Of a stretch of DNA of 30,979 nt, positions 1,314-25,263 are shown piece by piece (within the stretch, counting starts at the first letter, position 1; every line of letters starts with the position of its first letter). The notes under the pieces were generated by a model that did not search any database, was not told the DNA's origin, and saw nothing but the letters and a program-made list of their open reading frames with translations. The DNA lies in NCBI GenBank assembly GCA_028279045.1, contig JANQSZ010000030.1:1-30979 (forward strand), read 5' to 3'. This DNA is from Candidatus Nanoarchaeia archaeon. GTDB taxonomy: Archaea > Nanobdellota > Nanobdellia > Woesearchaeales > UBA10216. The position numbers and the translations under genes are program-made.

Positions 1314-1964
1314 ATGGAAAAAAAAGACATTTTAGAATCATTGAAACAAGTGCGCGATGGTAAGAAGCGCAAGTTTTCTCAGAGTGTTGATCTCATTGTT
1401 AATCTGAAGGATATTGATCTGAAGAAAAATGATCAACAAGTAGACTTCTTTGCACAGTTGCCGCATGCAGAAGGCAGCGGCATTGCAATCTGCGCTTTGG
1501 TAGGACCAGAGCTGAAAGATAATGCAACAGCAAACGTTGACACTGTTATTGAAGTTGATGACTTTCCAAAATATACTAAAGACAAGAAGCTTGCAAAAGC
1601 ACTTGCAGAAAAACACCAATTCTTTATTGCACAGGCAAACATCATGCCACAGGTTGCAACAGCATTTGGACGTGTATTGGGTCCTAAGGGAAAAATGCCA
1701 AATCCAAAAGCTGGTGGAGTTGTACCGCCAAAAGCAGACCTTGCACCACTAGTTGCTCGGTTAAAGAAAACACGACGTGTTTCTGCTAAGACAGCACCTG
1801 TTGTACACACACTTGTTGGAACCGAATCATTGAGTGATGAAGATCTTGCAGAAAACATTCTGAACATGTACAAACAAGTTCTTTCACATTTACCAAACGA
1901 AGAAGCAAACGTAAAATCTGCTTTCGTTAAACTAACAATGGGTAAGCCGGTGAAAGTAAGATGA
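1314..1964 (+). CDS. rpl1: 50S ribosomal protein uL1
   Basis: 216 aa. N-terminus ...KKRKFSQSVDLIVNLKDIDLKK... and ...GPKGKMPNPKAGGVVPP... are classic archaeal L1 signatures. GGAGG SD lies 6 nt upstream. The stop overlaps the next start (ATGA at 1961..1964). Confidence 0.95.
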   Translation: MEKKDILESLKQVRDGKKRKFSQSVDLIVNLKDIDLKKNDQQVDFFAQLPHAEGSGIAICALVGPELKDNATANVDTVIEVDDFPKYTKDKKLAKALAEKHQFFIAQANIMPQVATAFGRVLGPKGKMPNPKAGGVVPPKADLAPLVARLKKTRRVSAKTAPVVHTLVGTESLSDEDLAENILNMYKQVLSHLPNEEANVKSAFVKLTMGKPVKVR

Positions 1965-3532
1965 GTGAACACAAAGTAGCCGCGGAAAAAGTAGAGTTGG
2001 TCAAACAACTCAGAGAACTTATGGACGAATACCCAGTTGTTGCACTTGTTAACCTTGCTAACTTACCAGCACCGCAACTTCAAGTCATGCGTGCAAAATT
2101 GCGTGATTCGGTTGTTATGGTAACTGCTAAAAAACGGTTAATGCGTATTGCACTCGAGGGTGCTAAAGATAAAAAGCCAGGTATTGAACAACTTTCTGAT
2201 AAAATGAAAGGAATGCCTTCGCTTGTGTTTACGAAAGACAATCCATTCAAACTTGCAGGAATCCTGCGAGAAAATAAATCAAAAGCACCTGCAAAAGCAG
2301 GACAAGAAGCACCGAATGATATCATTGTTCCAGCTGGAGCAACACCATTTAGTCCAGGACCAGTTATTAGCGAACTTGGTTCAATTGGATTGAAGACTGG
2401 TGTTGAAGGCGGAAAAGTTGCTATCAAAGAAGATTCTGTTGTTGCAAAAGAAGGCGATGTTATCGACCAGAACATGGCAAACGTACTTGCAAAACTTGAG
2501 ATTCACCCAATGGAAATTGGATTGGACTTGACAGCTGCATACGAAGACGGAACAATCTTTGGTAAAGATGTACTATCAGTTGATCCACAAATTTACCGTG
2601 ATGAATTAACAGCAGCGATTGCTGAATCACACGCACTAACCATGGGAATTGGTTACATCACTGATGCAAACGCAGAAGCACTTGTACAAAAAGCATTCCG
2701 AGAAGCTCTCGGACTTGCTATTGACAAAGAAGTGTTGTCTGATGAATTGCTAAAGAAGCAAGTCGGCGATGCGTATGTTCAAATGAAAGCGCTGATGGGT
2801 AAGGCTAGTATTAGTGAGGATGCAGCTGAAGAACCAAAAGAAGATCCTGAACCAGAAGAACCGAAGGAAGAGCCTAAAGAAGAAGCTAAACCAGAGCCAA
2901 CTCCAGAAGCTCCTGCAGAAGAACCGAAAGAAGAACCTGCAGCTGAGTCTGAAAAAGTAGAAGAAACTCCTGCTGAACCAGAACCGGAGCCAAAGGAAGA
3001 AGCAACTCCTGAACCTGCACCGGAAGAGCCGAAAGAAGAGGCAGCGCCGGAGCCAGAAAAGGTTGAAGAGCCGCAACCAGAAGCAGAACCTGAACCAGAA
3101 AAAGTTGAGGAACCAGCTCCTGAAGAAGTGAAGGAAGAAGCAACTCCTGAACCAACTCCTGAAGAACCAAAGGAAGCTGAACCAAAAGAAGAAGCACCTG
3201 AAGTTCCTGAATCAGAACACGATGCAAGTGAAGCAGAACCGGAACTACCGCCGGAAAGAGAAGCTCCAGCACCTGAACAAGTTCAAGCACCAGTAGAACC
3301 AGAAAAGGTTGAAGAAAAACCTGCTGTTGCACCAGAAGCTGCAAAAGAAATTGATAGTGCAGTAAAAGACGCTCAAGAATTTTCACAAAAACAAGTGGAC
3401 AAAATTGAGGACGAGATCGATCAACAAATCGAAGAAATGCGTGTCAAGAAGGACGACGATGTTAGTACTGATCAAGATAAGATCGAAGAACTAACAAAGA
3501 AACTTCAGAAAAAAGGCACGTTACGAGACTAA
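1961..3532 (+). CDS. rplP0: ribosomal stalk protein uL10 (P0) with a very long acidic Pro/Glu-rich C-terminal extension
   Basis: The N-terminal ~285 aa are colinear with archaeal P0 (KVELVKQLRELMDEYPVVALVNLANLPAPQLQVMRAKLR..., PAGATPFSPGPVISELG). Residues 286-461 are EPKEE/PEPEKVEEP-type low complexity. The last 62 aa are a charged helix ending KKGTLRD. Position between rpl1 and rpl12. Confidence 0.9.
   Translation: MSEHKVAAEKVELVKQLRELMDEYPVVALVNLANLPAPQLQVMRAKLRDSVVMVTAKKRLMRIALEGAKDKKPGIEQLSDKMKGMPSLVFTKDNPFKLAGILRENKSKAPAKAGQEAPNDIIVPAGATPFSPGPVISELGSIGLKTGVEGGKVAIKEDSVVAKEGDVIDQNMANVLAKLEIHPMEIGLDLTAAYEDGTIFGKDVLSVDPQIYRDELTAAIAESHALTMGIGYITDANAEALVQKAFREALGLAIDKEVLSDELLKKQVGDAYVQMKALMGKASISEDAAEEPKEDPEPEEPKEEPKEEAKPEPTPEAPAEEPKEEPAAESEKVEETPAEPEPEPKEEATPEPAPEEPKEEAAPEPEKVEEPQPEAEPEPEKVEEPAPEEVKEEATPEPTPEEPKEAEPKEEAPEVPESEHDASEAEPELPPEREAPAPEQVQAPVEPEKVEEKPAVAPEAAKEIDSAVKDAQEFSQKQVDKIEDEIDQQIEEMRVKKDDDVSTDQDKIEELTKKLQKKGTLRD
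2816..3343 (+). repeat. degenerate in-frame Pro/Glu/Lys-rich repeat tract inside rplP0
   Basis: Recurring gaaccNaaagaagaa and gaaccagaaaaggttgaaga units encode EEPKEE and PEPEKVEEP (the latter motif appears three times). This tract generates the long spurious antisense ORFs 2750..3076 and 2886..3386. Confidence 0.85.
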
Positions 3533-3553
3533 TGTTAACGGAGGTTACCCAAC

Positions 3554-3862
3554 ATGGAATACGTCTACGCAGCTATGCTCTTGCATAAAGCTGGCCAAAA
3601 AGTAGATGAGGCATCTTTGAACAAAGTACTAGAAGCCGCTGGCGCAAGTCCAGACGCTGCTCGTACAAAAGCTGTCGTTGCTGCTCTTGACGGAGTAGAT
3701 ATCGAACAAGCTATCAAAGACGCTGCAGTCGCTCCTGTTGCTGCTGCTCCTGCACCTGCACAAGGTGGAGATGCTCCTGCTGAAAAGAAGGACGAGAAGC
3801 CTGCAAAGGAAGAAAAGAAGGAAGAAGAAGCTGCAGCCGGCCTCGGTGCACTATTTGGTTAG
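3554..3862 (+). CDS. rpl12: ribosomal stalk protein P1 (archaeal L12)
   Basis: 102 aa: [17 protein letters not shown]...[16 protein letters not shown], with the canonical Ala/Pro hinge, acidic linker and GLGALFG tail. GGAGGT SD at 3540..3545. Confidence 0.95.
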
Positions 3863-4777: not shown

Positions 4778-5270
4778 ACGAGGCGATTGATCGCCAACTT
4801 TCTTCTTTACCCGATGTGTCTGCAACTGCAATCGAATCTACGCCAAAAGAAATCGGGTAGCCTGTTATTCTTGAAGCAATTGCGTCTCTTTTTTCTGATG
4901 AGTATTCGCCGTATACCAAGCTAAGATGAGGGAAAAAATCTGTTTTTAATCCGAATTCCTGCTGAGCTTGGCTATTAGCAGTCATAAGTTCGGGTGTTTG
5001 TCGAACAGCAACATAGACAGCCCGGTAAAATGCATCTGAATGGTGTAGCGAATCAAGATATGCTGTAAAGGGCGACAAACGGTCTGCCAAAGAAGCAGTT
5101 CTGCTTAATATTTCATCTTTTGCTAGGTTTTGATGAGGAAGGAAAGTGATATGAGGCTCGAATCTCGGACTAGAAAGTGCAGATGCTTGTGCATCAATGA
5201 TTCCTGAAAGAGATTCATTGTCCGCAACATTAGGTACAAGCCACAATGAGTATCCTGGTCCGAGTTCCAT
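4767..5270 (-). CDS. 2H phosphoesterase, CPDase (cyclic phosphodiesterase) family, paralog A
   Basis: Two H-x-T/S-x motifs (PHITF, PHLSLVYG). Colinear with plant/fungal CPDase (YSLW...PHITx...F.A.Y.....PELM......PHLSLxYG). The track start at 5312 is TTG. I prefer ATG at 5270 (MELGPGYSLW), which has TTTAAA (5291..5300) centred about 25 nt upstream and matches the paralog N-terminus. Confidence 0.8.
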   Translation of the reverse strand: MELGPGYSLWLVPNVADNESLSGIIDAQASALSSPRFEPHITFLPHQNLAKDEILSRTASLADRLSPFTAYLDSLHHSDAFYRAVYVAVRQTPELMTANSQAQQEFGLKTDFFPHLSLVYGEYSSEKRDAIASRITGYPISFGVDSIAVADTSGKEESWRSIASFTL

Positions 5271-5882: not shown

Positions 5883-7700
5883 CTAGCTTGCGTCGAAGTC
5901 AACAGATGCACTTTCTCCGAAGGCAATCTTCGAAATAGTTACACCGTTTTCTGTTACATCAAGCGCATGGTCTAGAGTTGGGCGCGTTGTGCTGTTCGAC
6001 GTTACTTCCAATGCCTTGGAAATTTCTGTTGCACTCGACTCAATCACAATAGGGTCGGTAATCATAATTGTATTACCGCCGCTAGCTGCTGTTTGAGCTT
6101 CGTTAAACGTCTTGTAACACACGCTGCTTTCAACAACACAGTACGGACTGAGTTCTGTGTAGGTAACTTTCACACTAACATGATCAAGTTCACAGTCTAC
6201 ATCAGTTCCTGTGTTTGCCAAGCAACGGCCCTTCACTGCGAAGTTTCCATCTTCGAAATCTTCTAGAGTCCATGTTCGGTCTGCGGTAACGTCAACAGTC
6301 ACAGTCTGCATTGTTCCTGACAAGTCGAATTCGTGGTTATCTCCAAGAGTAACACCGTCATCAACACTTGTCTTGAACAAAATCTTACCATCAGTTCCAC
6401 CAGCAGCTTTGTATGTTGCAATCAATCGAACTTTTTGAATGACTGCAATGTTTGGAATGTCCAAACCAAAGTCTTGCCAGAGTTGGTGGTCAGAGGTTGT
6501 GTGGACGTTTGTTCCGTCACCTTCAGATACGTTACCATCTTCGACGTATGCGTTTTCGCAGTTTTCCCATTCAGTAAAAGTACTGTATTGGGAACAGCGA
6601 GATGGTGAACCGATCTCTTCTTCAGGAAGGTGGTATGATACGTTTACCTTCAACAAGTCGACTTCACAATCAACAGGAGTTCCTGTTGTAGCTTGACATC
6701 TCCCTTTTACAGCGAAGTTTCCATCCTCGAAGTCGTCGTACTCGTACGTCCAGTCGCTCGTAATGTCAGTAACAACAGTTTGCATGCTTCCTGATAACGC
6801 AAGGAAGTGGTTTGAACTACGCGTTACACCATCATCGATACTGGTTTGGAGCAGAACGTTGCCTGACGTTGAACCAGCTGCCTTGTACACAGTAATCAAT
6901 TCAACAAGGTCAATGATTGCGTCTTCTGGAAGTGTTGTATCGAAGTCTTGCCACAACTGGTGGTCAGAAGTTGTGTGGTCATTGGTACCGTCACCTTCTG
7001 CAACTACACCGTCTTCGTTTCGAACTTCTTCACAGTGTTCCCATTCTGTGTACGTGCTGAATTGCACACACATAGCTGGTGTTCCTGGTTCTGGGATGAA
7101 TCCGAGAATAATGTCATCGAAGTAGTTGTTGAATCCAGACTGTGTGTTATCGGTTTCTAGCTGTACTTGAGCGACTCCGCCTTCATAATTGTGTGGCGAG
7201 GAAAAGTCTCTACTACAAGCATAGCTTCCATCGATGTGGATGTCATAACTTTCATCATCGTAATCGATGTAATACTCGATAGTGTAGTTTGTATCATCTT
7301 GTGATGCGATGTTACAGCCAGATCCTGGAATGTTCTCGAACAATTCATCATGATTGTGCAAATCATGGATAGGTCTTATAGTTAGATTGTTCGCCATGCC
7401 GAAGAACTGCGCTCTCGTTACGTCATCGCTTCTAAATGTGTACGATACGTATGTCGGGAGGAAGTCCGACTCTGTGACGTTGTAAAACGCCCTTGCACGA
7501 TCTGAATCGACGTCGATCAGCTTAAGCTGTCCATCGACCGTGGTAATGCTGTTGCTTCCACCGCTTGCATCGTACCAGCCTTCCAAGCCGCTTTCAAACG
7601 TGAAGCTTAGGCCAGCCGCCATTGCAGACGGGACTAGTGAGACCAGAAATGTTGCAAGAACCAGTGTCACCAGTGTTATTTTATATTTTATTTTACTCAT
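5883..7700 (-). CDS. secreted/surface protein with an N-terminal lectin-like beta domain, two tandem ~150-aa Cys-containing repeats and a short beta-helix-like C-terminal segment
   Basis: Signal/anchor MSKIKYKITLVTLVLATFLVSLVPSAMAAG. ATG at 7700 is preferred because the 35 codons upstream in the track ORF are A/T-rich spacer. GAGGG lies 9-13 nt upstream. See the internal duplication feature. Confidence 0.75.
   Translation of the reverse strand: MSKIKYKITLVTLVLATFLVSLVPSAMAAGLSFTFESGLEGWYDASGGSNSITTVDGQLKLIDVDSDRARAFYNVTESDFLPTYVSYTFRSDDVTRAQFFGMANNLTIRPIHDLHNHDELFENIPGSGCNIASQDDTNYTIEYYIDYDDESYDIHIDGSYACSRDFSSPHNYEGGVAQVQLETDNTQSGFNNYFDDIILGFIPEPGTPAMCVQFSTYTEWEHCEEVRNEDGVVAEGDGTNDHTTSDHQLWQDFDTTLPEDAIIDLVELITVYKAAGSTSGNVLLQTSIDDGVTRSSNHFLALSGSMQTVVTDITSDWTYEYDDFEDGNFAVKGRCQATTGTPVDCEVDLLKVNVSYHLPEEEIGSPSRCSQYSTFTEWENCENAYVEDGNVSEGDGTNVHTTSDHQLWQDFGLDIPNIAVIQKVRLIATYKAAGGTDGKILFKTSVDDGVTLGDNHEFDLSGTMQTVTVDVTADRTWTLEDFEDGNFAVKGRCLANTGTDVDCELDHVSVKVTYTELSPYCVVESSVCYKTFNEAQTAASGGNTIMITDPIVIESSATEISKALEVTSNSTTRPTLDHALDVTENGVTISKIAFGESASVDFDAS
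6153..7070 (-). repeat. internal tandem domain duplication (two copies, period 158 codons) within the surface-protein gene
   Basis: Copy 1 spans residues 211-358 (6627..7070), CVQFSTYTEWEHCE...FEDGNFAVKGRCQATTGTPVDCEVD. Copy 2 spans residues 369-516 (6153..6596), CSQYSTFTEWENCE...FEDGNFAVKGRCLANTGTDVDCELD. Well over half the positions are identical by eye and all four Cys are conserved. Confidence 0.9.
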
Positions 7701-7880
7701 TTTGGCATCCCTCTTGTAGTTGTCAGCTGCATAACAAAAAATTGCTGCATAAAATGCAATAAAAATTTGGTTTTTAAGTTTTTGGCGTATACAATATGAC
7801 AACACAAGTCCCTATATATTTGCTATGCGCACTTGTCCAGTGAGCGAAAGAAACAAAAAGAGGAACATGTTTGGATAGTT

Positions 7881-9008
7881 ATGGTATACGAACCGCGCGA
7901 AGATAGTTACTTTCTGCAGAAGTTTGTTTCTGGCGTTAGAGGTAGAGTACTTGACATGGGAACAGGTACTGGTGTACAAGCCGAGGAAGCTGCGAAAACT
8001 GCAGATGTTGTTGCAGTTGATATCGATCCTGAGGCGCTGAAGATTGCTAAGCGGCTTACCAATGTGAAAGTTATCAAAAGTGATTTGTTCAGTAATGTTG
8101 AAGGGGAGTTTGATGCTATCATCAGCAATGCGCCGTACTTGCCTACTGACAAAAAGCACCCTGATGTTGCACTCGACGGTGGAAAGCACGGTTATGAGTG
8201 GATATGGCGGTTTTTGGAAGGGTCAAGGAAACACTTGGCAGCTGGTGGAAGAATAGTGTTGTTGTGCAGTTCGCTTAGCAAAAAAGAAAAAGTAGAGGAA
8301 GGGATTCAGAAGTATGGATATGTGTTTCGCGTTCTTGGTAAGAAGAATTTGTTTGGAGAAATACTGTATGTGTATGAAATTACACAGCATCCGGTGCTTG
8401 CGGAGTTGAATGTTGCGGATCTGGAGTTGCTTGCGCAAGGAAAACGGAGTTTGGTGTATACAGGATTGTTTGGGAAAAAAGTTGCGATCAAGATTAAACA
8501 TCCGCGGAGTAAAGCGGTTGCACGCATTAGTGTGGAAGCTGAATGGCTGCGGAAAATGAATGAGCACGGTATTGGGCCGCGCTATATTGCGAGTTCGGCT
8601 AAATTTGTGATGTATGAATTTGTCGATGGGGAGAAGATTGGAAGTTATCTCGAACATTGTAGTGGGAAAGATGCGCTGCGTGTGTTTCGAAACGTGATGA
8701 AGCAATGCAGAATCATGGATGCGATGAAGGTAGATAAGGAAGAGATGCATCATCCTGTCAAACATGTGTTGATTAGCAAGCGAGTAGTGCTGATTGATTT
8801 TGAGCGATGTCATAAAGTCAAGCTGGGGAAGAATGTAACGCAGTTTGTGCAGTTCCTGGTATCGGGAAATGTGGAAAGACACTTAAAGAAGAAGAAAATT
8901 AAGCTTGATAGGGAAAAATTATTGGAGGCAGCCAAATGGTACAAAAAGGACCAGTCCGACAAGAATATGAATCAGATATTAAAGCTGGTAAAATCAAACC
9001 AGGGATGA
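7881..9008 (+). CDS. fusion protein: Mtq2/HemK-type SAM methyltransferase (N-terminal) plus atypical protein-kinase-like domain (C-terminal)
   Basis: N-terminal half: VYEPREDSYFL, VLDMGTGTGV (motif I) and DAIISNAPYLP (NPPY-type motif IV), as in archaeal/eukaryotic release-factor glutamine methyltransferases. C-terminal half: LAQGKRSLVY (G-loop-like), VAIKIK (VAIK Lys), EAEWL, MYEFVDGE hinge and LIDFERC (DFG-like). ATG at 7881 is preferred over the TTG at 7833. Confidence 0.75.
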   Translation: MVYEPREDSYFLQKFVSGVRGRVLDMGTGTGVQAEEAAKTADVVAVDIDPEALKIAKRLTNVKVIKSDLFSNVEGEFDAIISNAPYLPTDKKHPDVALDGGKHGYEWIWRFLEGSRKHLAAGGRIVLLCSSLSKKEKVEEGIQKYGYVFRVLGKKNLFGEILYVYEITQHPVLAELNVADLELLAQGKRSLVYTGLFGKKVAIKIKHPRSKAVARISVEAEWLRKMNEHGIGPRYIASSAKFVMYEFVDGEKIGSYLEHCSGKDALRVFRNVMKQCRIMDAMKVDKEEMHHPVKHVLISKRVVLIDFERCHKVKLGKNVTQFVQFLVSGNVERHLKKKKIKLDREKLLEAAKWYKKDQSDKNMNQILKLVKSNQG

Positions 9009-9316
9009 ACTTTAATGAAAGAGTGTGGGCTCTTACTAGTCGTATTCCAGAGGGTGAAGTGACTACTTATGGCGAGATAGCTCGGAAGATGGGTACTAAA
9101 GCTGCACGTGCTGTTGGGAATGCGTTGAATCGCAATCCGTATGCACCTGAAGTTCCTTGTCATCGAGTTGTAGCATCCAATGGAGCGTTAACTGGATTTG
9201 CAACAGGGCTTGCTAAAAAGGAACGGATTCTTGCGAAAGAGGGTGTAAAGGTTAGTGTTGATCATAAGGATGCTGCGAAGAAACGGATTGTCGTTGAGTA
9301 TTACAAATTCCGATGA
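9005..9316 (+). CDS. ogt: O6-alkylguanine-DNA alkyltransferase, catalytic/DNA-binding domain only
   Basis: TTYGEIARKMG..AARAVGNALNRNPYAPEVPCHRVV contains the PCHR active-site motif. ATG at 9005 forms an ATGA overlap with the upstream stop. About 103 aa, with no N-terminal domain. Confidence 0.85.
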   Translation: MNFNERVWALTSRIPEGEVTTYGEIARKMGTKAARAVGNALNRNPYAPEVPCHRVVASNGALTGFATGLAKKERILAKEGVKVSVDHKDAAKKRIVVEYYKFR

Positions 9317-9915
9317 ACTACAAGGATGTTACAAAGGAAAGTTATAATTCTAGCGTAGAGGCGTATGCGGCAAGGAATGCAAGTAGAACGAACCCGCGCT
9401 TGCAAGCTTTTTTTGATATGCTTCCGGGAACGAAAGTTTTAGAAGTTGGATGCGGCGATGGACGGGATGCGAAAATCTATTCTGAACAAGGTTTTGTCAT
9501 AACTGGCATTGATATTTCTGAAAAAATGATTGCGCATGCAAAGCAACATGCTGTAAAGGCAGAATTTTTTGTTATGGACGCTACTTCACTGGAGTTTCCT
9601 GATAATACTTTTGATGGCGTGCTTGCCGCAGCTTCATTGCATCATGTTTCCCGAGAAGATATGCCCAAAGTAATCAAAGAAATACATCGCGTGCTGAAAC
9701 CCGGAGGACTCTGTAGGATTACGGTGAAGAAGGGGGACAATGCACGGTTTGAGAAAGATGAACGCTATGGCGGTGTAGAGAAATTCTGGAATTACATGAA
9801 TGAAGAATACTTACGAGAACAACTTAGTGATTTTGAGATTGTTGAGATGATTGAACATCCATCTGAATCGAATCCAGACCTGATGTGGGTAGAAGTTGTG
9901 GCACGATCACGCTAA
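9313..9915 (+). CDS. class I SAM-dependent methyltransferase
   Basis: VLEVGCGDGRDA (motif I), ITGIDISEKM, FDGVLAAASLHHV and LKPGG. ATGA overlap with ogt. Confidence 0.8.
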   Translation: MNYKDVTKESYNSSVEAYAARNASRTNPRLQAFFDMLPGTKVLEVGCGDGRDAKIYSEQGFVITGIDISEKMIAHAKQHAVKAEFFVMDATSLEFPDNTFDGVLAAASLHHVSREDMPKVIKEIHRVLKPGGLCRITVKKGDNARFEKDERYGGVEKFWNYMNEEYLREQLSDFEIVEMIEHPSESNPDLMWVEVVARSR

Positions 9916-11301
9916 ATCTTGCAATGTTTGCACACGCAAATTATCAGAATGTCCTTTCTTGCCGACTTTTGTTCCTAGCGTTACCACGACGCGGCTTGAT
10001 GGTTTGAGGAGTTTCTTTCTGAGAAGAATTTTCGCTGTACTCTTGAGGAGAGCGTCGCTGCTTTTTTCTCGCGTACCCATAACTGGATAGGTTCCATACG
10101 ATAACGAGAGTTCCCGGAATGTATTCTCTTCTGGCGTCATTGCGAAAATAGGAATGCGTGGTTTGTAACGCGCAATGAAACGTGCTGTTGAACCGTGAAT
10201 TGTATGGGTGATGATTGCATCTGCGTGCAGATCCTTCGTAGCTGCGTACGCACTCTTGCCGATGAATTCTTGCGTTGACGCCATTTGCTTGCCGAAGATT
10301 TTTGATCTGCTAATAAGTGGAATTTGCTCATTGTATTTTGAAATTCTCGCGAGCATCTCAACAGCGCGGACAGGGTACTTGCCGGTTGCTGTTTCACCGG
10401 AGAGCATTAATGCATCAGTACCGTCGAAAATTGCATTTGCAATGTCTGTTGCTTCTGCTCTTGTGGGCCTAGGTGAGTTGGTCATTGATTCCAGCACTTG
10501 CGTTGCGGTAATGACTGGGATTGCTTCGATGTTGCAGCGCATGATAATGCTTTTTTGCAGTGCAGGAACTTGTTCGATTGGTAGTCCTAATCCGAGATCG
10601 CCGCGCGCAACCATGACGCCGTCGGAATTGCGCACGATGTCTTGCAAGTTTTCAATTGCTTGTTTGTTCTCTACTTTAGAAATGAGTTTTATTCCGCCCA
10701 TCAGTGCGCGAATGGCTGCGATGTCTTTTTTGTTTCTCACAAAAGAAGCTGCCACGAAATCAATATCGAGCTCGCGAGCAATTTTCATGTCGTCTTTGTC
10801 TTTCTTTGAGAGAAATGGAGTGTGTAAACTTGCTGCTCCGGGAAAGTTTGCGTTTCTTTTACTTTTGAGAATGCCAGGGCCAGTGACTTTTGCAAATGTT
10901 TTCTTGCCTGTCTTGGTAACTTTGAGCTCAATCATGCCATCGCTCAACAGGATTTCATCCCCGACTGAGAATTTTGCTTTTGCTGCGCCGTTGATGTGGA
11001 GTACTTTATCTGTGCATTCGCCTTGGCCGAGATGCACTTCAAGAACTTGATTGAGTTTCAGCTTGATTGGTTCTTTACAGACACCAGTCCGGACTTCAGG
11101 GCCTTTAGTATCGAGCATGATAGCGAGATCAGGAGCGACTTTGCGGAGTGTTTTGACTAGCGGAGGGATCTTTTCTGGGTCAGCATGGCTCAGATTGATC
11201 CTGGCAACGTTCATGCCCGCCTTGTGCATCTGCTTCAGAGTAGAAAGAGTATTACAACTCGGTCCAATAGTGCAGACGATTTTAGTGAGTTTCACTACCA
11301 C
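9907..11301 (-). CDS. pyk: pyruvate kinase
   Basis: TKIVCTIGPS, MNVARINLSH, MLDTKGPEVRTG, KVENKQAIENL, MVARGDLG and ATQVLESM are all canonical PK motifs. 464 aa. Confidence 0.95.
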   Translation of the reverse strand: MVVKLTKIVCTIGPSCNTLSTLKQMHKAGMNVARINLSHADPEKIPPLVKTLRKVAPDLAIMLDTKGPEVRTGVCKEPIKLKLNQVLEVHLGQGECTDKVLHINGAAKAKFSVGDEILLSDGMIELKVTKTGKKTFAKVTGPGILKSKRNANFPGAASLHTPFLSKKDKDDMKIARELDIDFVAASFVRNKKDIAAIRALMGGIKLISKVENKQAIENLQDIVRNSDGVMVARGDLGLGLPIEQVPALQKSIIMRCNIEAIPVITATQVLESMTNSPRPTRAEATDIANAIFDGTDALMLSGETATGKYPVRAVEMLARISKYNEQIPLISRSKIFGKQMASTQEFIGKSAYAATKDLHADAIITHTIHGSTARFIARYKPRIPIFAMTPEENTFRELSLSYGTYPVMGTREKSSDALLKSTAKILLRKKLLKPSSRVVVTLGTKVGKKGHSDNLRVQTLQDLA

Positions 11302-11806: not shown

Positions 11807-12733
11807 TTATTCCTTGACCTTCTTCTTGGTCTTCTTGATTTCCTTCTCAAGCTGAAGCTTGTCAAGAAGTTCCTTGTAGCGGTTTCGGATTGTCACTTCA
11901 GTAACACCAGCAACATCTGCGACTTCACGCTGAGTGCGCTTTTCGCCGTAAATGAGTGCTGCTACGTAGAGTGCAGCTGCTGCGATTCCTGTAGGACCGC
12001 GTCCAGATGTTAATTCGCTCTTTTGCGCACGTTCCAAGATCTCAATAGACTTGGACTGTGTTTCTGCGCTCAACTTTAGAGCAGAAGCGAATCGTGGAAT
12101 ATAGTCAGCTGGATTGGAAGGCATTATGGAAATGCCGAGTTCGCGGGTTACGAATCGGTATGTTCGTCCAATTTCCTTCTTCTCATTACCAGAAGCTTCA
12201 GCAAGTTCGTCAAGTGTTCGAGGAACTTCATGACGTCTACATGCTGCGTATAAAGCACCGGCAACAACAGATTCCATTGATCGGCCTCGTACCAGGCCAC
12301 GTTGTACTGCAAGTGTGTAAATACGAGCTGCTTCTTCTTCAACACTCTTTGGAAGTTTCAAGTAGCTTGAAATTCTCTTCAATTCGGAAAGTGCAAGCTT
12401 CAAGTTACGCTCAATAGCAGTTGAGATTCTGTACTGCCACTTTCTCAAACGGAAGAACTTGTTTCTGGACTTGTTTTCCAAACGTGACAAGTCTGCTTTC
12501 ATACCAACTTCAGTACCCAAACCTTGGTCGTACTGTGTATAGGTCATAGGAGCTCCTACACGTCTGCGGCTATCACCGCTATCAGAATCGAACTCACGCC
12601 ACTCTTGGCCGAAGTCAACCATCTTATCTTCGACTACTAGACCGCAGTCTCTACAGATGATCTCTCCTTTTTCTTTGTTCCAGAATAGATTAATGCCCCC
12701 ACATTCAGGACACTTTTTGACAAAATCGCTCAT
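11807..12733 (-). CDS. tfb: transcription initiation factor IIB (TFB)
   Basis: N-terminal Zn ribbon CPECGG...CRDCG, B-finger region and two cyclin repeats, ending with ...TEVTIRNRYKEL. ATG at 12733 (MSDFVKKCPECGG) is preferred over the TTG at 12796. Confidence 0.95.
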   Translation of the reverse strand: MSDFVKKCPECGGINLFWNKEKGEIICRDCGLVVEDKMVDFGQEWREFDSDSGDSRRRVGAPMTYTQYDQGLGTEVGMKADLSRLENKSRNKFFRLRKWQYRISTAIERNLKLALSELKRISSYLKLPKSVEEEAARIYTLAVQRGLVRGRSMESVVAGALYAACRRHEVPRTLDELAEASGNEKKEIGRTYRFVTRELGISIMPSNPADYIPRFASALKLSAETQSKSIEILERAQKSELTSGRGPTGIAAAALYVAALIYGEKRTQREVADVAGVTEVTIRNRYKELLDKLQLEKEIKKTKKKVKE

Positions 12734-12928
12734 TATGCTCCCCCCATAGTTTCGAAAGGTATACCCCCCAACGAAACGGTTAATTATGATACTCAAAGAC
12801 CATTAATTACTTAAATAGGAGATCGAACTGATATATAAAGCTTTCGAATTCCCTAGGGCTTCTATAAAAACATTGCGAATCATTTATTAACAAATCCGCG
12901 TTCTAACATAAGAATAGTAGTCCCCTAC

Positions 12929-12934
12929 TATATA
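12929..12934 (+). promoter_or_regulatory. TATA box of the rel gene (leaderless)
   Basis: ctaTATATAgttt is centred about 25 nt upstream of the ATG at 12956 and is preceded by a 6-bp hairpin tagtag-tccc-ctacta (12915..12930). Confidence 0.5.
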
Positions 12935-12955
12935 GTTTATGGTGATTTTGGGTGT

Positions 12956-14869
12956 ATGACAGAAGAGAATCACGTACTCGGGCTAGACAAAGACGGCTAT
13001 TTACGTCACCTTCTAGTGTATAATCCTAACGCTGATCTGAAACTGATTGGACGTGCGTATACTTATGCTGAAGAAGCGCACGCAGGCCAGAAACGGCTTT
13101 CAGGGGAACCGTATTTTGAACATGTTCGGAACGTAGCGCACATTATTGCTTCTTTGCGATTAGATTCTGCTACAATAGCTGCAGGGTTGTTGCATGATGT
13201 CATAGAAGACACGCCAATTACGGATAAACAGATTAAAAAAGAGTTTGGCAAGGAAATTCTTGAGTTGATTCAAGGAGTTACCAAAATTGACAATGCACAA
13301 ATCAAGCTGGACAGTGATGAAGAACGCCGCGCAGAGAATGTGCGGAAGGTATTGCTTGCTACGATTAAGGATATTCGTGTTATTTTGATTAAATTGGCTG
13401 ATCGATTACATAATATGCGAACACTGAAGCACAAATCAATAACAGAACAAAAACGGATTGCGAAAGAAACACTTGAGATTTACGTACCGATTGCGTACAA
13501 ACTTGGAATATATCGTATCAAGAGTGAATTAGAAGATTTATGCATGCGATTCTTGATGCCTCATGTGTATCAGAACTTGAAATCACAAATTTCTCGAACA
13601 AAAGAAGAACGTGAACGAGAAGTTGCGGTGAATACGAAAAAGATTGCTGCGTTGTTGAAACGGAAAGAGATTGAAGCAGAAGTTTATGGGCGGGCGAAGA
13701 ATTTCTTTAGCATTTACAAGAAAATGCGGCGCAAGGATTTGAAGTTCAAGGAAATTCATGATTTGAGTGCGATGAGAGTTGTCGTTAAGAATATTGATGA
13801 CTGTTATCGTGTACTTGCATTGTTGCACGAAACATTTCAGCCAATACCAGGGCGGTTTGATGATTACATTTCCACACCGAAGCCGAACATGTATCAATCG
13901 TTGCATACTGAAGTTGTTATTGATGGTAAACCAGCAGAAGTGCAAGTACGTACGTCGGAAATGCACTATGTGGCAGAAGAAGGAATTGCAGCGCACTGGC
14001 GATATAAGGATACTGATCGCGATAAGAAGTTTGATCGAACAATTGGTTGGTTGAAGCAGATTTTGGAATGGAAACGAAGTGCGAACGCGAAAGAATTCAT
14101 TGAAAATTTGAAGATTGATGTTTTCAAAGATGAAATTTATGTGTTAACACCGAAAGGCGATCCTATACCACTACCCGAAGGAGCGACGCCGATAGATTTT
14201 GCTTATCGTGTGCATAGCGGAGTTGGAGATCGTTGTGTTTCTGCGAAAGTGAACAACAACATTGTGCCGTTGGACCATCAGCTCGGAAGCGGAGATGTTG
14301 TTGAAATTTTAACACGGAGAAATGCACTGCCATCTCGTAACTGGTTGAAGTTTGCGAAGACGAACACTGCGAAGAGTAAAATTCGGCAAAAATTGGGTAT
14401 GACGCAGGAACGCGATCCTAAACAAGAACGGGAATTGATGCGAGAATATTTGTTGGAGAAGATTGATGCTCCTGATAATGCGAAGTTGCGATTATCGCAA
14501 GATTGTCGATGTGAATACGGACGTGCGATCACCGGATATCGCATGAAAGATGGTCGAATTAGTGTGCATAACTTGGGATGTGAAAGTTTGAATAGTTTGA
14601 ACAAGAAAAATATTGTTCCGTTGTCGTGGAAAGAACATGGGCAGGTTAATGTTTCTAAGATTCAAGTGCAAGCGACAGATCGAACAGGATTGTTTTCTGA
14701 TTTGTTGAATACGTTTACTGAAGAGCAGATGAAAGTGAATGCGATCCATACCAAGACAAGAAAAGATAAGTTCCACATTGTGTTTGAAGTGGAAGATATT
14801 GAGCGTGCTGGAGACGTTGTTACTAAGCTAAAACAGATTCGGAACGTTGTAGGTGTGAGTGCTGCATAA
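12956..14869 (+). CDS. rel: long RelA/SpoT homologue, bifunctional (p)ppGpp synthetase/hydrolase architecture (HD-SYNTH-TGS-helical-ZFD-ACT)
   Basis: HD: HAGQKRLSGEPYFEH...LLHDVIEDT...ADRLHNMRT. Synthetase: GRAKNFFSIYKKM, DLSAMRVVV, YISTPKPNMYQSLHT, EVQVRTSEMHYVAEEGIAAHWRYK. TGS: IYVLTPKGDPIPLPEGATPIDFAYRVHSGVGDRC. Zn-finger-like: CRCEYGRAITGY...ISVHNLGCESL. ACT: VQATDRTGLFSDLLNTF. 637 aa. Confidence 0.93.
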   Translation: MTEENHVLGLDKDGYLRHLLVYNPNADLKLIGRAYTYAEEAHAGQKRLSGEPYFEHVRNVAHIIASLRLDSATIAAGLLHDVIEDTPITDKQIKKEFGKEILELIQGVTKIDNAQIKLDSDEERRAENVRKVLLATIKDIRVILIKLADRLHNMRTLKHKSITEQKRIAKETLEIYVPIAYKLGIYRIKSELEDLCMRFLMPHVYQNLKSQISRTKEEREREVAVNTKKIAALLKRKEIEAEVYGRAKNFFSIYKKMRRKDLKFKEIHDLSAMRVVVKNIDDCYRVLALLHETFQPIPGRFDDYISTPKPNMYQSLHTEVVIDGKPAEVQVRTSEMHYVAEEGIAAHWRYKDTDRDKKFDRTIGWLKQILEWKRSANAKEFIENLKIDVFKDEIYVLTPKGDPIPLPEGATPIDFAYRVHSGVGDRCVSAKVNNNIVPLDHQLGSGDVVEILTRRNALPSRNWLKFAKTNTAKSKIRQKLGMTQERDPKQERELMREYLLEKIDAPDNAKLRLSQDCRCEYGRAITGYRMKDGRISVHNLGCESLNSLNKKNIVPLSWKEHGQVNVSKIQVQATDRTGLFSDLLNTFTEEQMKVNAIHTKTRKDKFHIVFEVEDIERAGDVVTKLKQIRNVVGVSAA

Positions 14870-15908
14870 ATTCTTGAATGACTGATTGTCGACCAGGATC
14901 GGGCGTGAGTTTACTTAATTTTACACCAACGAGACGAACAGGTTTTTCTTTAACATGTGTTATGAAAAGCTCATTTGTCACTTTTTTAATGTCTTCCAAT
15001 TCTGTTGTTGCGGTTTGTAATGTGTAATCGCGCGTTATTGTTGAGAAATCGTGGTACCGCACTTTAATTGAGATTGTTTTGCATGCGCGTCTTCCGAGAT
15101 CTTTGTAGACTTTCTTGCAGACTTTACCGAGGAACTTTTGCGCTTCTTTGCTTGTTACGTCTTCAAAAAAGGTTCTTTCTCGGCTGACTGATTTTGCTGC
15201 ACCGCGTTGACGTATGCGTGATGTGATTTCACCCAATGCGATTTGTTGTAATCGCACGCCGTACATGCCGAAGTATCTTAAAACGCGGAAGCGATTCATT
15301 TTCATCAAGTCACCAATCGTTAATACTCCTTTGTTGTGGAAGTATTGCTTGCTCTTTTTTCCGACGCCAGGGAATGTTTCTATTGGTAGTGGCTGGAGGA
15401 TTTGTTCTGGATTCACTAAGACAGCGGTGCCTGCAGGTTTGTTGAGCTCTGATCCAATTTTTGCAAGGGTTTTTGATTTAGCAATTCCAACTGAGCAGGA
15501 GAGATTTGTTTGGAAAACAACTAATGAGCGAAGGATTCTGGCTGTTTGCTCAAGTGTTTCGTACCGGCGAGAGAATGAAGTAATGTCAAGATACGCTTCG
15601 TCAACAGATACCTGCTGCATGTCATCGGAAAAGCGATGGAGAATTGACATAATTGTTTGTGATTGCTCGCGATAATAGCTGTAGTCTCCTGGCAAGAAAA
15701 TACCGTTAGGGCAGCGCTTCCTTGCGATTGAGATTGGGGTAGCTGAAAAGACACCGAACTTTCTGGCTTCGTAATTTGCAGCGGAGACAACGCCGCGTTT
15801 TCCTGTTGCGCCAACCATGACCGGCTTGCCTTTTAGTGATGGATCCTTTTTTTCTTCGCATGCTACGAAAAAGCAGTCCATATCCACATGGGCAAGGATA
15901 CGATCCAT
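14823..15908 (-). CDS. dinB: Y-family DNA polymerase IV (Dpo4/DinB)
   Basis: ILAHVDMDCFFVACEE, KPVMVG...GVVSAANYEARKFGV, VSVDEAYLDIT, and a little-finger region at the C-terminus. The 3' end overlaps rel by 47 nt (convergent). Confidence 0.93.
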   Translation of the reverse strand: MDRILAHVDMDCFFVACEEKKDPSLKGKPVMVGATGKRGVVSAANYEARKFGVFSATPISIARKRCPNGIFLPGDYSYYREQSQTIMSILHRFSDDMQQVSVDEAYLDITSFSRRYETLEQTARILRSLVVFQTNLSCSVGIAKSKTLAKIGSELNKPAGTAVLVNPEQILQPLPIETFPGVGKKSKQYFHNKGVLTIGDLMKMNRFRVLRYFGMYGVRLQQIALGEITSRIRQRGAAKSVSRERTFFEDVTSKEAQKFLGKVCKKVYKDLGRRACKTISIKVRYHDFSTITRDYTLQTATTELEDIKKVTNELFITHVKEKPVRLVGVKLSKLTPDPGRQSVIQEFMQHSHLQRSESVLA

Positions 15909-24051: not shown

Positions 24052-25263
24052 CTAAATAATTACATTGATGAAGATGTAGATGAACGTTAATGGAATGAAT
24101 GAGATAAGATAGACTGATTTCTTCCAGGCCCATACCTTCTTGCCGCCGAATGGAGTAAAGGGAAGCATTTGTAGGAATGTAATGCCTAATGCGAGCAGCA
24201 TCACCATTTGGTAGATAGTTGATGGGTTGAGGAAGTTGAGAACAAAGAAAACTCCGAAAGCGATGAACGTCATGAAATTGACGATGAATGCGTGCTTACC
24301 TTCGTGCTCGTTTTCCTTTTCATCAGAAGCAACATAGCCTGCTAGCGAGAAGGTGTTACCGAGCCACGCTGTTAACGCGGTAACGATTGCGCCGTACAAC
24401 CAAATCTTGTATTCGGTATGGAGGCCGTGTTTCTTGTCTAAATAAAGACGCACTCCATTACGAACTGCGTAGACAACCATGTTAACGACAATTGTTAAGA
24501 GGAAAAATTGTGCTGCAGGAGAATTTGGAGAGAGATACATGTATCCTAGAGAGATTGCAAATATGGATGCAGAAATTAAGATGGCGAACCATTCTCGTAA
24601 TTTGAGGCGGACACCAGCTGCGTGGAAACCAAGGAACTCGTCCTTGACAGATTTTTTGTTTACCCATTTCATTACTTTGCTGGCGAGGAACAATGAGAAT
24701 ACTCGTTTGAGTACTTTTATGATAAGTTGCCAGAACCACAAGAATGAGATACCGACTAGCGTTGCGGCAGCAGGAACGTATTCTTCTGGGATGACTTTAT
24801 TGAGTGGTGAACGAGAAGCAGCTGTTTGCGGTTCGTTGGCATGACCTGTTTTATCGGAGACAACCATGAACCTGCCTTGTGGTCCTTCAAGAAATGTTGT
24901 GATGCCAACGCTAGTTGCGTCTTCATCTTTGGTTAGTGTGGGATCGTTAATGAGATCATTTGAGTATTCAGAATTCTTCGGGCCGCCGATGACGATAACT
25001 GTTTTGCCTTCAATAGCTTCTGGTGTTAGATCTTCTTCTGCAATGCGCTCGACGCTTGCTAATTGACTGTATTTCTCTTGAACAAACGCAAGGGTTGCTT
25101 TCTCTGTTAATGAAGCGTGCTGGCCTTCAACAATAATAATGTCAGGGTTTTCCTGCACAAACTCACGAACTTTGACTTCTAACTCTGCCAGGTCTTCTGT
25201 GAGTTGAGCAGACGCTACCGGAAGCAAGAAAAGGAGTAGTAAGAGTACACCAGCTTTTTTCAC
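24052..25263 (-). CDS. membrane protein with signal peptide, extracytoplasmic domain and a C-terminal polytopic domain resembling a degenerate site-2 protease (M50) core
   Basis: Signal MKKAGVLLLLLFLLPVASAQ. The segments YAVRNGVRLYLDKKHGLHTEYKIWLYGA and LQMLPFTPFGGKKVW align by eye with the M50 HExxH-helix/KKxG and NxxPxxxxDGG regions, but the metal ligands are substituted. A separate HEGKH string is present. GTG start with GGTGAT SD. Confidence 0.35.
   Translation of the reverse strand: MKKAGVLLLLLFLLPVASAQLTEDLAELEVKVREFVQENPDIIIVEGQHASLTEKATLAFVQEKYSQLASVERIAEEDLTPEAIEGKTVIVIGGPKNSEYSNDLINDPTLTKDEDATSVGITTFLEGPQGRFMVVSDKTGHANEPQTAASRSPLNKVIPEEYVPAAATLVGISFLWFWQLIIKVLKRVFSLFLASKVMKWVNKKSVKDEFLGFHAAGVRLKLREWFAILISASIFAISLGYMYLSPNSPAAQFFLLTIVVNMVVYAVRNGVRLYLDKKHGLHTEYKIWLYGAIVTALTAWLGNTFSLAGYVASDEKENEHEGKHAFIVNFMTFIAFGVFFVLNFLNPSTIYQMVMLLALGITFLQMLPFTPFGGKKVWAWKKSVYLISFIPLTFIYIFINVII

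Follow-up and report, generated by a model that had tools for sequence, protein, structure and literature searches.

A long RelA/SpoT homolog with a shortened sensor half encoded on a woesearchaeal contig

The stretch of DNA analyzed here (30,979 nucleotides (nt), the whole of it hereafter called the window) is contig JANQSZ010000030.1 of the Candidatus Nanoarchaeia archaeon assembly GCA_028279045.1. It carries, at positions 12956 to 14869 of the forward strand, a gene for a long RelA/SpoT homolog (RSH) of the Rel type, that is, a putative bifunctional (p)ppGpp synthetase/hydrolase. The open reading frame (ORF) begins with ATG, is free of frameshifts and internal stops, and encodes 637 amino acids; both coordinates and length agree exactly with a preliminary description of the window. 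The protein scores 656.5 bits against the NCBIfam model TIGR00691 (spoT_relA, cutoff 499.2), and it stays below the cutoffs of the equivalog models for SpoT (NF008303, 503.6 versus 947) and RelA (NF008124, 411.7 versus 728). Its best relative in the PDB is Bacillus subtilis Rel (6yxa, 2.9e-145 in phmmer). The catalytic blocks of the two proteins align without gaps, and every hydrolase and synthetase signature listed in the preliminary description is found in that alignment. An AlphaFold2 model was built from an alignment of 30 members of the archaeal clade described below; its mean predicted local distance difference test score is 75. The modeled catalytic half superimposes on Staphylococcus aureus Rel bound to pppGpp (7oiw) with a template modeling (TM) score of 0.93 and a root mean square deviation of 2.2 Å, and TM scores of the modeled N-terminal domains against bacterial Rel structures range from 0.85 to 0.93.

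The domains follow one another in the order HD, SYNTH, TGS, ZFD, and ACT. The (p)ppGpp hydrolase domain HD occupies residues 34 to 185 (13055 to 13510; Pfam HD_4, 1.6e-49) and the synthetase domain SYNTH residues 245 to 353 (13688 to 14014; Pfam RelA_SpoT, 7.9e-40). A hinge, or core region (residues 354 to 393, 14015 to 14134), leads to the TGS domain with His420 (residues 394 to 453, 14135 to 14314; Pfam TGS, 2.1e-21). Behind TGS lie a remnant of the α-helical (AH) domain (residues 461 to 510, 14336 to 14485), the zinc-finger-like ZFD/RIS domain (residues 511 to 558, 14486 to 14629), and the ACT/RRM domain (residues 568 to 634, 14657 to 14857; Pfam ACT_4, 1.2e-9, and ACT, 1.8e-9). The preliminary description had credited the protein with the full architecture of a long RSH. 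The domain order bears this out, but the AH domain between TGS and ZFD is ~84 residues short.

Conservation of the active sites was assessed over the same 30 clade members, whose mean column identity is 53%. Twelve hydrolase positions (H42, Q45, R47, H56, H80, D81, E84, D85, K146, D149, R150, and N153) and the synthetase positions R246, K248, D269, R274, K309, N311, Y313, S315, H317, E328, Q330, R332, and T333 are invariant in all 30 proteins. They include the HDxxED motif, which reads H80-D81-V-I-E84-D85, and the signatures R150-L-H-N153, R246-x-K248, K309-x-N-x-Y-Q-S-L-H317, and E328-x-Q-x-R-T333; AAHW is present as well. D269 aligns to D264 of B. subtilis Rel, where the D264G substitution abolishes synthesis (PMC7797070). 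In a wider alignment of 251 long RSHs, 239 proteins, that of the window among them, preserve all 10 residues of the catalytic string HHDEDNRKDE. Column entropy was compared between the archaeal clade and equal-sized bacterial samples: it is 1.35 versus 1.43 bits in HD, 1.46 versus 1.64 bits in SYNTH, and 1.15 versus 1.34 bits in TGS. The catalytic residues, which the preliminary description had judged intact by eye, are thus undisrupted, and both active sites are under strong purifying selection across the archaeal clade. At the sequence level, the protein combines a complete HDxxED hydrolase with complete synthetase residues, as a bifunctional Rel does. It differs from monofunctional RelA in its intact hydrolase site, in a charge motif that is RFDD and not ExDD, and in its score below the RelA equivalog cutoff. 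This motif (R300-F-D-D303) also departs from RxKD. The corresponding positions are mostly xFDD in the archaeal clade, where Lys occurs in 2 of 41 proteins, and RFKD in 56 of 62 bacterial ones.

The clade itself was delimited by a search across 5.8 billion proteins clustered at 90% identity. More than 120 RSH clusters are 48 to 58% identical to the protein of the window over its full length; they measure 618 to 697 amino acids, nearly all of them 618 to 665. Members with readable source names are assigned to “Candidatus Woesearchaeota archaeon” or “Nanoarchaeota archaeon,” and GenBank labels the clade proteins bifunctional (p)ppGpp synthetase/guanosine-3′,5′-bis(diphosphate) 3′-pyrophosphohydrolase. 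A second search, started from a distant clade member, added ~25 more short clusters. The survey for archaeal orthologs that the preliminary description had suggested therefore finds them in number. Phylogenetic placement, another of its suggestions, was carried out with a neighbor-joining tree of 251 long RSHs, comprising 41 clade members, 148 representatives at 50% identity (2 of an initial 150 were shorter than 560 amino acids and were excluded), and 62 named bacterial proteins taken from genome loci among the matches listed by a profile scan of contigs, all of which were bacterial Rel loci. The 41 archaeal sequences form one clade in 99 of 100 bootstraps, and a larger group of 53 sequences, all with a short linker between TGS and ZFD, is recovered in 62 of 100. 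The nearest named bacteria among the matches listed are Bacillota/Clostridia and Myxococcota, with 47 to 54% identity in the N-terminal half.

The gene shares its neighborhood with those of its relatives. In the window, it is divergent from tfb, the gene for transcription factor B (11807 to 12733, reverse strand; Pfam TFIIB and Zn_Ribbon_TF), as the preliminary description had stated. The same divergent pair is found on the contigs of four relatives (P0010, P0003, P0091, and P0033; NCBI, JGI, and ENA assemblies) whose RSH proteins are 51 to 58% identical to that of the window, and on all four, L1/P0(/P1) genes, an MTS methyltransferase gene, and a DNA_binding_1 gene lie within a few kilobases of the RSH gene. 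The GC content of the gene (0.41; 0.39 at third codon positions) matches that of its neighbors with no compositional break, and its codon preferences correlate with those of the rest of the window at r = 0.84, among the highest values for the 21 genes. Conserved synteny, host-like codon usage, and monophyly with archaeal homologs are what is expected of a native archaeal gene. Taken with the deep divergence of the clade and the full compositional amelioration of the gene, synteny within a subclade points to a transfer from bacteria to archaea long ago and to vertical descent since then. The “domesticated inter-domain transfer” of the preliminary description is likewise supported by synteny, codon usage, and the archaeal clade.

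The C-terminal half of the protein has been remodeled unevenly. His420 of TGS aligns to H420 of B. subtilis Rel, is present in 250 of the 251 long RSHs, and is invariant in the archaeal clade; in B. subtilis Rel and Escherichia coli RelA, this residue stacks on the CCA end of tRNA (PMC7797070). The linker between TGS and ZFD, counted from R477 of “KIRQ” to C517 of “CC,” has 39 residues in the protein of the window and 35 to 49 (median, 40) in the clade, versus 110 to 146 (median, 124) in the 62 named bacterial Rels; an AH/Helical domain would be expected to place about 95 to 115 residues there. In the alignment, the first helix after TGS is kept, ~84 residues are gone, and homology returns just ahead of CC. 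The model contains only two short helices in this interval (470 to 480 and 488 to 501). The RelA_AH_RIS model PF19296 was undetected in the C-terminal 177 residues at E ≤ 1, whereas a Bacillus control gave 51.5 bits, and in precomputed annotations, it occurs in none of the short proteins and in essentially all of the long ones. The AH domain of E. coli RelA spans residues 485 to 580: Linker Helix 1 lies beneath the tRNA acceptor arm, the core (~520 to 560) packs against the A/R tRNA at its D stem, and Linker Helix 2 does so against ACT (PMC4974054). Most simply read, the alignment means that both linker helices persist in the archaeal clade and that the AH core, the part that binds the D stem, has been lost there.

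A short linker is not diagnostic of archaea. P0154 (positions 8001 to 10028 of its locus, L085) has a partly shortened linker of 58 residues, falls outside the archaeal clade, and matches PF19296 weakly, in the RIS half only. Its gene lies among those for HU, SecDF, and Der in an apt-rel-dtd arrangement, a clearly bacterial context that also served as a control for the context test. Since this protein is bacterial by context, AH shortening, as judged by linker length, has arisen independently in some bacteria too. Two larger proteins, P0097 (968 amino acids) and P0290 (899 amino acids), were considered as clade members with a full AH domain and rejected. Both are of the bacterial type, and P0097 carries RFKD. 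An internal segment is duplicated in each (SYNTH in P0290, SYNTH plus TGS in P0097), which raises their scores against the query; errors of assembly or gene calling are their probable origin.

Only in ZFD/RIS do the archaeal proteins vary more than the bacterial ones, with a column entropy of 2.08 versus 1.58 ± 0.03 bits. Pairwise identity in this domain is 0.36 within the archaea and 0.52 among bacteria at matched divergence of the catalytic domains. The zinc ligands and W558 are kept in 98% or more of the clade, but the positions of the bacterial signature (P519, P521, T530, G532, G534, and R552) are not. In the protein of the window, the ligands C517, H538, and C542 are present. In the zinc-finger-like region noted in the preliminary description, the first Cys of the “CC” pair is an Asp here (D516-C517-R-C519). 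This Asp is found in the window protein alone among 53 sequences, and 98% of the clade has Cys; the extra C519 is a possible substitute for the lost ligand at 516. In the ACT domain, the D575-R576-x-G578 loop, whose Asp contacts L16 in RelA, is retained (D in 47, R in 50, and G in 51 of 53 sequences). Net charge per 100 residues is higher than in bacteria in ZFD (+7.0 versus +0.6), in ACT (+3.3 versus +0.8), and in the linker (+11.5 versus +5.3), which keeps a net charge of +6.5 despite its shortening. Three features would argue against RNA binding having simply been lost: His420, the DRxG loop, and the basic character of ZFD, ACT, and the linker. The hinge that joins SYNTH to TGS (residues 354 to 393; ERDKKFDRxIxWLKQILEW), which is modeled with low confidence, shows much stronger conservation among the archaeal proteins (a column entropy of 1.37 bits) than among bacterial ones (2.21 bits); it might serve as a regulatory or partner-binding surface peculiar to the clade.

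Overall, we favor, with a probability of roughly 0.7, the interpretation that the gene is a native, vertically inherited gene of DPANN archaea of the Woesearchaeota/Nanoarchaeota type and encodes an active bifunctional Rel of ancient bacterial origin with a remodeled sensor half. By analogy with the bacterial homologs, SYNTH would move pyrophosphate from ATP to the 3′-OH of GTP or GDP to make (p)ppGpp, HD would hydrolyze it back, and the C-terminal half would switch the two activities reciprocally. The trigger would most likely be uncharged tRNA, the CCA end of which would be read by His420 of TGS, with the basic ACT and zinc-finger modules providing the contact with RNA or the ribosome. Docking on the archaeal ribosome, if it takes place, would be shorter than in bacteria and would have to differ in geometry, given the loss of the AH core and a RIS/ZFD surface that is unconserved beyond the zinc ligands.

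Several observations weigh against this interpretation. The backbone of the tree is star-like and the stem of the archaeal group measures only ~0.035 substitutions per site, a shape that singles out no donor phylum. In bacteria, RxKD sets the response to Mg2+, the preference for GTP or GDP, and the coupling to the C-terminal region, and with xFDD in its place, kinetics and substrate preference may differ (PMC2666561). TGS of B. subtilis Rel forms no stable tRNA complex alone, and the TGS-Helical fragment forms one that depends on H420 and on deacylation (PMC7797070); tRNA sensing may therefore be weaker in a protein whose AH core is gone. RIS, the major ribosome-binding domain of RelA (PMC4974054), is the only domain that sequence conservation marks as less constrained in the archaeal clade. 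Finally, no papers on the domain architecture, expression, or biochemistry of the clade proteins were found in a literature search that covered only a minority of subscription journals.

How the sensor half works is where the readings part. One possibility, which we put forward tentatively, is a fully ribosome-coupled stringent response in a large DPANN lineage: a naturally minimized Rel, lacking the AH core but anchored by a retuned and more basic RIS/ACT, would bind at bridge B1a of the archaeal ribosome and read the CCA end of deacylated A-site tRNA via His420, and the (p)ppGpp formed would throttle archaeal GTPases and nucleotide salvage. The elements on which bacterial Rel docks, namely, the A-site finger H38, uS19, uL16, and the CCA end of tRNA, are universal. 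Alternatively, the protein may be an active Rel that lost its ribosome docking after the transfer and works away from the ribosome, in the manner of SpoT, its C-terminal domains now serving only intramolecular autoinhibition or the sensing of a small ligand, of free tRNA, or of a partner protein. The absence of the AH core throughout the archaeal clade and the relaxed constraint that singles out ZFD/RIS, with its bacterial signature positions lost, speak for such a protein. A hyperconserved hinge would fit a compact, self-regulated state like that of full-length SpoT (7qpr, one of the search matches), and B. subtilis Rel binds deacylated tRNA even when it is not on the ribosome, with H420-dependent inhibition of its hydrolase (PMC7797070). 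Against ribosome independence, the zinc ligands, W558, and the L16-contacting loop of ACT are still conserved, the net positive charge of ZFD, ACT, and the linker exceeds the bacterial values, which is what an RNA-binding surface would lead one to expect, and the docking elements just named are universal. We give ribosome-independent action about the same, rather low probability as the fully ribosome-coupled response.

That only one activity is retained, in a (p)ppGpp hydrolase or scavenger of host-derived nucleotides or in a decaying relic, is improbable. DPANN archaea do rely on their hosts for nucleotides (PMC8407392), and the Lys of RxKD is not conserved; however, R246, K248, D269, E328, Q330, R332, and T333 match the hydrolase residues in invariance across ~50% divergence, the entropy of SYNTH is lower in the clade than in bacteria, and the reading frame is undamaged. 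An assembly or binning artifact, in which a rel gene from a bacterium was wrongly joined to an archaeal contig, is effectively refuted: contigs of metagenome-assembled genomes can be chimeric and the N-terminal half is 47 to 54% identical to Bacillota and Myxococcota Rel among the matches listed, but the same tfb-RSH junction and neighborhood recur in at least four other independent assemblies, composition and codon usage show no break within the window, the nearest relatives all carry the deletion of the archaeal clade while bacteria come no closer than about 50%, and the plainly bacterial surroundings of P0154 show that the context test discriminates. With the window itself, the junction is present in five independent assemblies and no chimeric junction was found, in line with the preliminary description, which had argued against contamination.

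The region upstream of the RSH gene contains a candidate archaeal promoter. A TATA-like box (TATATAG, 12929 to 12935, forward strand) is centered 24 nt upstream of the RSH ATG, where the preliminary description had placed an archaeal TATA box at 25 nt. Similar boxes are found at −24 to −27 in two more distant clade loci (L084 and L086), and AT-rich boxes at about −22 to −36 in the syntenic loci L081, L082, and L087. The arrangement would suit an archaeal promoter from which the RSH mRNA starts with a short leader or none. A Shine-Dalgarno-like GGTGA is present at 12941 to 12945 (−15 from the ATG) and an alternative TATA lies farther upstream, at −90, and with these two elements present, the assignment of the transcription start is tentative.

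On the other side of the spacer, the mechanically delimited tfb ORF (11807 to 12796, reverse strand) starts with TTG at 12796 and would encode 329 amino acids. Since tfb homologs measure 306 to 309 amino acids and the zinc ribbon begins directly after Met22, the true start is probably the ATG at 12733, giving a protein of 308 amino acids. Between the two genes, a conserved block with a transcription factor B recognition element (BRE) and a TATA box (12805 to 12850, reverse strand; CGAAAG-N-TTTATATA) is common to the window and to L081, L082, and L087, where it is located at ~6460 to 6510, ~7835 to 7885, and ~4815 to 4865, respectively. The block is ~45 nt long; its minus-strand consensus, [A/C]CGAAAG-N-TTTAWATA, has the canonical form of an archaeal BRE and TATA box, and another TTTA-rich box comes ~17 nt after it. 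The block faces tfb, at 102 to 112 nt from the tfb ATG (256 nt in L081), and tfb is probably transcribed from it with a long leader. Functional coupling of tfb and RSH was considered and rejected because the pair, found in five contexts, is missing around P0058, P0093, P0112, and P0166 and because the BRE/TATA block of the spacer faces tfb.

Downstream, a convergent gene for a DinB/Dpo4-like Y-family polymerase (14823 to 15908, reverse strand; IMS and IMS_C) shares 47 nt of 3′ end with the RSH gene. Other neighbors in the window include genes for a pyruvate kinase and an aldo-keto reductase. The archaeal stalk operon that the preliminary description had noted on the same contig was found at 1314 to 3862, with L1, P0, and P1, the P0 carrying the archaeal/eukaryotic RL10P insert. 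The P0 gene (1961 to 3532, forward strand) encodes 523 amino acids, versus 262, 410, and 418 in syntenic relatives, so the protein varies greatly in length within this lineage; the L10 and RL10P_insert models match residues 7 to 181 only. The intron-containing tRNAs reported for the contig were not reproduced: ARAGORN, Rfam at gathering thresholds, and Rfam at E ≤ 1 detected no tRNA genes in the window, and no other Rfam family was found there at gathering thresholds or at E ≤ 1. Two long ORFs on the reverse strand (5883 to 7805, 639 amino acids, and 24052 to 25263, 402 amino acids) have no Pfam match at E ≤ 0.001. Around the RSH genes of other loci, genes of toxin-antitoxin or Fic type occur without a consistent pattern. 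In L082, a Fic gene lies directly downstream of RSH and a ParE gene ~3 kb further (9959 to 11011 and 12897 to 13160), and in L081, PIN and MazE genes lie ~4 to 6 kb downstream (12505 to 14859).

The existence of RSHs in DPANN archaea is already on record. RelA/SpoT was reported in 41.7% of Woesearchaeota, 69% of Diapherotrites, 21.3% of Pacearchaeota, and 19% of Nanoarchaeota, with a bacterial origin inferred (PMC8407392). Earlier, the founding RSH survey by Atkinson et al. (2011) had come upon no more than a few small RSHs in archaea and had counted the absence of long ones among archaeal traits (PMC3153485), and a 2023 review states that (p)ppGpp is undescribed in archaea and has no important role there (PMC10249747). 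The novelty premise of the preliminary description, that long RSHs are regarded as bacterial or plastid traits, was therefore overstated in view of the DPANN report and the GenBank annotations. No biochemical characterization of the clade was found in the literature searched. What is new here is the clade-wide deletion of the AH core, the relaxation of ZFD/RIS alongside sustained constraint on catalysis and tRNA sensing, the hybrid charge motif, and the synteny with tfb and the stalk genes.

A stable archaeal clade with both active sites under selection makes alarmone synthesis in DPANN directly testable. Deletion of the AH core together with loosening of RIS amounts to a natural experiment on which elements of its sensor a Rel protein must have to read deacylated tRNA, and on whether a bacterial ribosome-sensing module can be refitted to an archaeal ribosome. 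If the ribosome-coupled possibility is true, it would constitute the first alarmone signaling system in Archaea and define a minimal sensor for starvation sensing on any ribosome.

Compared with bacterial bifunctional Rel (6YXA/6HTQ, 7OIW, RelSeq 1VJ7, and Thermus thermophilus 6S2T), the archaeal RSH has the same domain order, HD-SYNTH-TGS-…-ZFD-ACT, and is 41 to 46% identical over the regions aligned in structure searches. The HDxxED motif, the synthetase Asp, and His420 of TGS are common to both. In contrast, the equivalent of ~84 residues of the B. subtilis Helical domain (470 to 583) is missing from the archaeal protein, as is the bacterial ZFD signature P-x-P-G-D…T-x-G-R-G, and RFKD is replaced by RFDD. 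Unlike bacterial rel genes, the RSH gene resides in an archaeal genome behind a candidate promoter of the archaeal type.

E. coli RelA on the 70S ribosome (5IQR and 5KPV; Loveland 2016, PMC4974054) shares the C-terminal TGS, RIS(ZFD), and ACT folds, and 5iqr_8 is the top Foldseek match of the archaeal model (E = 2e-39). The third and fourth positions of its ExDD charge motif are DD, as in the archaeal RSH. The E. coli enzyme is hydrolase-dead, whereas the archaeal hydrolase site is complete, and the AH core that RelA places on the D stem of the A/R tRNA has no counterpart in the archaeal protein. SpoT of Acinetobacter baumannii (7QPR) is bifunctional, as the archaeal RSH would be, and a compact self-regulated state is conceivable for the latter; the two are only 25 to 26% identical in the structure search. 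A further precedent is the “RelA/SpoT” of DPANN genomes (mSystems 2021, PMC8407392), almost certainly the same family. It was treated there in one sentence and a supplementary tree; the domain analysis, deletion of the AH core, relaxation of ZFD, and tfb synteny described here, as well as biochemistry, lie beyond what that work covered.

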